A DNA stretch of 64,000 nucleotides from Escherichia coli (lineage in GTDB: Bacteria > Pseudomonadota > Gammaproteobacteria > Enterobacterales > Enterobacteriaceae): NCBI RefSeq assembly GCF_003334815.1, contig NZ_QOWO01000019.1; one strand, written 5' to 3'. Made by a program: the position numbers and the translations under genes. The notes below the pieces were generated by a model, which saw only the letters and a program-made list of their open reading frames with translations, made no database searches and was not told the origin of the DNA. Shown piece by piece: positions 12,441-12,450 of the stretch. Numbering within the stretch: position 1 is the stretch's first letter; each line of letters opens with the position of its first letter.

Positions 12441-12450
12441 AGGGGGGGGG
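12441..12450. repeat. G10 (C10 on coding strand of yfdF) homopolymeric tract
   Basis: Ten consecutive G at 12441-12450, about 122-131 nt upstream of the yfdF start codon and downstream of the fadL stop. Confidence 0.9.

Follow-up and report, generated by a model that had tools for sequence, protein, structure and literature searches.

A length-variable G9 run between fadL and yfdF (icaT) of Escherichia coli is probably a neutral mononucleotide microsatellite

The closest described counterparts of the locus reported here are polymorphic non-coding mononucleotide repeats (SSR or MNR loci) of Escherichia coli, which Gur-Arie et al. (Genome Res, 2000) and Diamant et al. (Appl Environ Microbiol, 2004) are said to have described as strain-typing markers. 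A different kind of homopolymer serves as a promoter switch in phase variation. In Neisseria meningitidis the poly-G of porA and the poly-C of opc lie within the spacer between the -35 and -10 elements, in Bordetella pertussis the poly-C of fim2 and fim3 lies between the activator site and the -10, and in Helicobacter pylori the poly-T of sabA adjoins the -35. Homopolymer phase variation is, as far as is known, rare in E. coli, and the species is not noted for homopolymer-based control. E. coli has active mismatch repair, under which indel rates in its mutation accumulation lines climb steeply with run length and stay far below those of phase variation. Homopolymer length is also the classic residual error of long-read assemblies.

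The homopolymer studied here lies between fadL and yfdF in the window (the whole 64-kb stretch of E. coli DNA that was analyzed), and it can be placed among the polymorphic non-coding mononucleotide repeats already known from E. coli. Like them, it is an intergenic run with conserved flanks that is polymorphic in length between strains, more variable when longer, and apparently without a required function. Unlike them, the fadL-yfdF series includes T-interrupted precursors that indicate how the run arose. The literature on E. coli mononucleotide repeats was searched for this tract, and nothing usable was found. With the promoter switches it has in common a slippage-prone G/C homopolymer upstream of an otherwise silent gene that needs an activator. 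However, the switch tracts are in or against the core promoter or an activator site, whereas the fadL-yfdF tract is 50–58 bp upstream of the activator/-35 box; the switch tracts are kept long across lineages, whereas this one is interrupted or short in many; and, unlike a switch, it is equally long in three K-12 strains that have been apart for decades, as their Sanger genomes show.

The tract reads GGGGGGGGG on the plus strand, with an A at 12441 before it (local sequence GCCA-GGGGGGGGG-AGTATCC; wider plus-strand context GCACAATAGCCA-GGGGGGGGG-AGTATCCTGG), and the strand encoding yfdF and fadL carries it as C9. The first-pass annotation was right that a long G run is present, but it gave the run as G10 at 12441–12450, which sets the left end one base too far. 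Other strains, ATCC 8739 and E24377A for example, do have G10 at this site; the window has G9. The distance to yfdF was as estimated there, with the tract 123–131 nt upstream of the ATG (A at 12319, minus strand). With the slippage threshold taken as a run of about 8 or more, the uninterrupted G9 is above it and qualifies as a mononucleotide microsatellite.

This is the sole homopolymer of at least nine bases in the 64 kb, and also the sole G/C run of at least seven. The window has 23 G/C runs of length 5, seven of length 6, none of length 7 or 8, and one of length 9. Extrapolating this run-length spectrum predicts about 0.05 runs of at least nine, while the expectation for such a run under independent, identically distributed bases is about 0.39 per window, and a G9 or C9 was present in 17 of 100 dinucleotide-preserving shuffles of the window. 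The tract is thus a moderate outlier – its rarity is moderate and, by composition alone, not extraordinary.

Table 1. Features of the yfdF-fadL region, in window coordinates
Feature	Position	Strand	Evidence and remarks
yfdF islet, ~1.54 kb, AT-rich	11121..12664	.	Comparison with islet-free complete genomes; ends approximate
yfdF (= icaT), 352 aa, 35.5% GC	11261..12319	-	ORF; RefSeq annotation of the identical K-12 region
MxiE box TGAGCGTTTTTTGATAG, yfdF/icaT promoter	12376..12392	-	Identical to the Table S2 box of PMC9769918, 73 nt from the ATG
-35-like hexamer TTGATA, inside the MxiE box	12382-12377	-	
CCAGG (CCWGG, Dcm-type site)	12439..12443	.	Sequence; overlaps the first two G of the run
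G9 homopolymer, hypervariable site	12442..12450	+	Letters read, script count, allele series across strains
CCTGG, second such site	12455-12459		Sequence
Perfect 13-bp inverted repeat (TAAAGTCACCTGC/GCAGGTGACTTTA)	12639..12667	.	Repeat search; directly after the fadL stop
fadL, upstream gene, same strand as yfdF	12685..14025	-	ORF; RefSeq 1341 nt in the identical K-12 region

The intergenic region that holds the tract (12320–12684, 365 nt) occurs in 4,298 complete genomes and is 100% identical to that of K-12 MG1655. Its G+C content is 27% from the ATG to the tract and 46% from the tract to fadL, against 35.5% for yfdF, and the compositional step falls at the tract. The 13-bp inverted repeat at the fadL end is, from its sequence and position, likely to be the fadL terminator hairpin.

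The tract lies within an islet that is variably present in the species. Both mlaA and fadL were found in all 5426 complete E. coli genomes, but at least 80% of an mlaA-yfdF-fadL query was covered in only 4275 of them, leaving 1151 (about 21%) in which it was not. In the non-covering genomes that were sampled, the matches end 2164 bp apart rather than 3708, and in two islet-free genomes mlaA and fadL converge, with 61 bp between them, and have one common, bidirectional terminator. The islet-free junctions put the right end of the islet at about 12664. This rules out the tract as the islet boundary; it is inside, about 215 bp from the right end, and is therefore not a junction scar. The pattern of islet absence matches the reported lack of icaT in phylogroup B2 (PMC9241512).

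Other sequence differences were seen in and around the islet. Insertion sequences are annotated within the mlaA-yfdF-fadL stretch in several genomes: an IS1A in the E. coli B lineage, an IS110-family element in strain 167, and an IS1B in F5505-C1. In FORC_042 an IS1A is within the fadL-yfdF intergenic region itself. The gene in the yfdF position is 1059 nt long in the K-12 type and 1032 nt in O157, and two divergent strains have genes of 1248 and 1200 nt there, annotated as "hypothetical protein"; these differences agree with the phylogroup-specific truncations and insertions reported for IcaT (PMC9241512).

A small ORF, unannotated in RefSeq K-12, is found on the plus strand, opposite to fadL and yfdF. 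Its 11 codons (MRTLLSVKWGS*; ATG at 12606, stop ending at 12641) are preceded by a perfect AGGAGG Shine-Dalgarno sequence (12594–12599) at a spacing of 6 nt, so that the whole unit occupies 12594–12641, and it runs into the putative fadL terminator hairpin. The ORF is open and of equal length in about 102 of 115 E. coli sequences, most of the others being too short to score, and four variants of the peptide occur. A promoter-like site on the same strand (12482–12511) is upstream of it.

The strain that carries the window resembles K-12 but is distinct from MG1655. The CPS-53/KpLE1 prophage found beside argW in K-12 is missing (tRNA-Arg CCT, 8948–9022; window regions 8947–9022 and 2611–8962), and two positions, 10828 (mlaA) and 22066 (yfcU, a K-12 pseudogene), differ from three K-12 records. 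The best match to the 3.7-kb mlaA-yfdF-fadL stretch was strain FORC 064. A record labelled "DH5alpha" (NZ_CP026085.1) shares no more than 97.1% identity with the window across 14.8 kb, has a different prophage at argW and non-K-12 protein alleles, and does not look like K-12 DH5alpha.

The gene downstream of the tract, yfdF, has been renamed icaT, and its product is a substrate of the Shigella type III secretion apparatus, T3SA (PMC9241512). Searches of Pfam and NCBIfam with the YfdF protein gave no match; assigning a function from sequence was dropped for this reason, and the literature was used instead. The gene is silenced by H-NS in both Shigella and E. coli (PMC9769918). In Shigella it is activated via a 17-bp MxiE box, and mutations of the box abolish activation; E. 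coli is without MxiE (PMC9769918, PMC9241512). icaT is found in phylogroups A, B1, D and E but not in B2, and is likely a "fossil" gene (PMC9241512).

The MxiE box locates the promoter relative to the tract. For yfdF, Table S2 of PMC9769918 lists the box TGAGCGTTTTTTGATAG, whose start is 73 nt upstream of the gene, and according to the authors of that paper MxiE boxes overlap the -35. The box is unchanged across 9 aligned strains. Transcription of yfdF probably starts at about 12345–12350, which would put the tract at roughly -90 to -105. Three chromosomal genes – yfdF, yccE (TGAGCGATTTTTGATAG) and yjgL (AGAGCGTTTTTTGATAT) – have a distinctive variant of the box in common (Table S2, PMC9769918), and this sequence likeness hints that the three have one origin, or that E. 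coli, which is without MxiE, has a native regulator acting on all of them.

With the published MxiE box at 12392–12376, the tract is outside both the promoter spacer and the 5' UTR. The first-pass suggestion that changes in its length could alter promoter spacing or the structure of the 5' UTR is therefore not supported: the tract is on the upstream side of the MxiE/-35 box, at the distance given above, and a search of both strands found no sigma-70-like hexamer pair straddling it. A promoter-like site with the tract as its spacer was ruled out on the same grounds. An Rfam scan of 11000–14300 found no family over the tract, and the one match, to a miRNA model, was a chance match far from it (E=0.21). 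The tract is thus outside the CDSs, the MxiE box and the promoter-like sites. A "promoter island" paper that mentions yfdF was set aside, as it is about the yfdF/mlaA side and not the tract region.

The length of the tract varies widely between strains. Nine complete genomes were taken from across the similarity range, and the sequence between CCA and AGTATCC was compared. The K-12 type has G9, PK6 has G8, E2855 has G8TG, MB1 has G9TG, O111:H11 has G6TG, O157 SS17 has G5TTG and FORC_042 has G6TTG, while the two most divergent genomes, with 94.5% and 88.3% intergenic identity, both have GGGTGGTTTG.

Metagenome contigs were scanned with a pattern in which the gap could vary, and 108 of them matched. 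They have 20 alleles: runs of G5 to G10, pure or interrupted by T, and GGGTGGTTTG, which is the allele of the most divergent lineages; low-coverage contigs may contribute some false alleles to this number. The commonest were G9 (about 22–23 contigs), GGGTGGTTTG (19), G8TG (16), G8 (10) and GGGAGGTTG (9), followed by G6TTG (8), G5TTG (6) and G10 (6). About a quarter of the contigs (29 of 108) have only G3 before the interruption, so a long pure run is not a conserved feature. Control runs on these contigs nearly always kept their length: the A6 of the MxiE box in 102 of 103, a G5 at 12631–12635 in 83 of 86, and A4 runs in all. The tract site is a mutational hotspot.

Counts in complete genomes were made by exact match of 95–96-nt queries against the 5426 E. 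coli genomes. On the K-12-type flank, identical over 86 nt, G9 was found in 915 genomes, G8 in 345 and G10 in 149. On the T-type flank, G8TG was found in 419 and G10 in 153, E24377A among the latter.

The variability of the tract also depends on the length of the run. When contigs were grouped by identical 750-bp flank haplotypes with at least two members, tract length was mixed in 5 of the 8 haplotypes with runs of at least 8 and in none of the 6 with short or interrupted runs, although this is a small sample. On a neighbor-joining tree of the flanks, 15 alleles require at least 34 changes, compared to about 67 when the alleles are shuffled, which means that there is phylogenetic signal together with much recurrence. 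The polymorphism between strains is real, large and dependent on run length, and this is the signature of slipped-strand mispairing, which is probably the mechanism by which the tract changes length. The first-pass description of the tract as a substrate for slippage is in agreement with this, as length differs on identical flanks and instability depends on the length of the run; the comparison among isolates that it had proposed finds G8, G9 and G10 on identical flanks.

The reading that best fits these results, and one that we consider quite likely, is that the tract is a non-coding mononucleotide microsatellite, apparently neutral, whose length drifts between lineages without a detectable regulatory role. 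T-to-G substitutions and the loss of T's would have merged the short G blocks of an interrupted G/T-rich motif, GGGTGGTTTG, into a run, and once about 8 bases or longer this run would slip in replication at an ordinary rate limited by mismatch repair. The setting would be spacer DNA with the fadL terminator on one side and the yfdF/icaT promoter on the other, where GC content drops from 46% to 27%, in an islet that was presumably acquired horizontally and is silenced by H-NS.

The allele series is consistent with this course. The most divergent islet-bearing lineages have GGGTGGTTTG in common, the intermediates are GGGAGGTTG, G5TTG and G6TTG and then G6–G9 followed by TG, and the pure G8–G10 runs occur mainly on the K-12-type flank and partly on the T-type. 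Judged from these sequences, evolution appears to have run from the interrupted motif to the pure run. The direction is read from divergent lineages of E. coli because an outgroup with the islet was not found: YfdF peptide patterns and a 24-nt promoter string returned nothing from a set of one genome per species, in which the E. coli representative itself is apparently without the islet. Outside E. coli and Shigella, icaT has been reported from two Salmonella strains only (PMC9241512). The islet seems to be confined to E. coli and Shigella.

All alleles but one keep CCAGG at the left edge of the tract. The exception is a single AGGGGGGG contig, and by its sequence this would be the change expected from deamination of a methylated C on the other strand.

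The tract lacks two defining features of a contingency locus, location and tract maintenance. It is not in a promoter spacer, a gap between activator and core promoter, a 5' UTR or an ORF, and a long pure run is not kept across lineages, in which G5TTG, G6TTG and GGGAGGTTG are common. In a contingency or "rheostat" role, changes of one base would shift or rotate an upstream element – an H-NS nucleation or bridging site, an UP-like element, or some unknown activator – with respect to the MxiE/-35 box and thereby tune the silencing or activation of yfdF/icaT, a mode of control like that of the sabA T-tract in H. pylori or the fim C-tract in Bordetella. In favor of this, the run has the length needed for slippage and varies among haplotypes that are otherwise identical, it is upstream of an H-NS-silenced, activator-dependent gene, and it is at the GC step that bounds an AT-rich block. 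Against this, 50–58 bp separate it from the -35-overlapping box, beyond which no site is known; the pure run has been lost or interrupted in a large share of lineages, unlike a selected switch; laboratory lineages decades apart keep the same length; and the gene is silenced in E. coli, which is without the activator MxiE. In addition, MxiE together with IpgC switches on yfdF/icaT in both MG1655 and an O157:H7 strain (PMC9241512). The reference MG1655 allele is G9 and that of O157 SS17, standing here for O157:H7, is G5TTG, so both kinds of allele go with a responsive gene. Such a rheostat is therefore improbable, and there is only a slim chance that one-base changes at about -100 have a quantitative effect, through the helical phase or through the place at which the AT-rich block bound by H-NS ends.

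A role that does not depend on length is about as unlikely. The tract would then be a GC-rich barrier to the spread of the H-NS filament, or a fixed protein site, and changes in length would be noise. As a barrier it would hold back H-NS spreading out of the AT-rich yfdF block in the direction of the fadL terminator and of the small divergent ORF. The step between 27% and 46% GC at the tract could matter for the extent of H-NS spread, and a G-rich core starting with CCAGG is at a constant place in all alleles but one. However, in some alleles the core is no stronger than GGGTGGTTTG or GGGAGGTTG, and the 20 bp flanking it on each side are equally conserved, which means that conservation is not specific to the tract.

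A further reading, in which tract length and the loss of T interruptions would determine helical phase at the yfdF/icaT promoter, or how far the H-NS filament reaches over it, is very doubtful. If it were true, lineages with G8, G9 and G10 would differ heritably in how easily yfdF/icaT, or the divergent 11-codon ORF, escapes silencing, and E. coli would have a slow expression rheostat acting at the level of lineages.

In laboratory strains the tract is fairly stable. G9 is found in the Sanger-era genomes of MG1655 (NC_000913.3), W3110 and DH10B, ATCC 8739 has G10 in 3 assemblies, and E. coli W and its derivatives have G8 in 4 records. Independent assemblies thus agree on one length in each of K-12, ATCC 8739 and E. 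coli W, which makes the tract a heritable and fairly stable feature. A few K-12 records are discordant: NEB10-beta (a DH10B derivative), NEB Turbo and MG1655 CP025268 have G8, and C600 CM132660 has G10. When the three G8 records were compared with the window, the tract was the only indel in 15.5–23.5 kb, and there was no second G/C run of at least seven in the 15–23 kb compared. A miscall is the more economical reading of this discordance, because the Sanger genome of DH10B has G9 and its derivative NEB10-beta has G8, and some of the later G8 and G10 calls in K-12 may well be homopolymer miscalls; if they are real, the rate of slippage would be higher than assumed here. On either reading the data appear to fit an ordinary microsatellite, stable over decades in the laboratory and variable across natural lineages, rather than a high-frequency switch.

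That the run in the window, or its length, is itself an artefact of sequencing or assembly, as the first-pass annotation had allowed, is hardly credible: single-base disagreements among K-12 records of the same lineage do resemble long-read homopolymer errors, but G9 on identical flanks is found in three Sanger genomes, 915 complete genomes and about 22–23 short-read-style metagenome contigs, and the tract and its alleles reproduce across platforms and across independent assemblies of one strain (ATCC 8739, E. coli W), so that artefact explains some of the one-base disagreements in K-12 and not the tract or the polymorphism between strains.

As it stands, the biological weight of the finding is small. 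The tract is an ordinary hypermutable homopolymer in a spacer, and a promoter-spacing switch does not fit the promoter as mapped. In practical terms, same-strain long-read assemblies disagree by one base at this site, and such a difference should not be taken for a real mutation without read-level support. The tract is also a well-behaved, high-diversity marker within the E. coli phylogroups that carry yfdF/icaT. The series of alleles from GGGTGGTTTG through G6TTG and G8TG to G8–G10 would be a clean natural example of the birth of a bacterial microsatellite and of the instability that followed.
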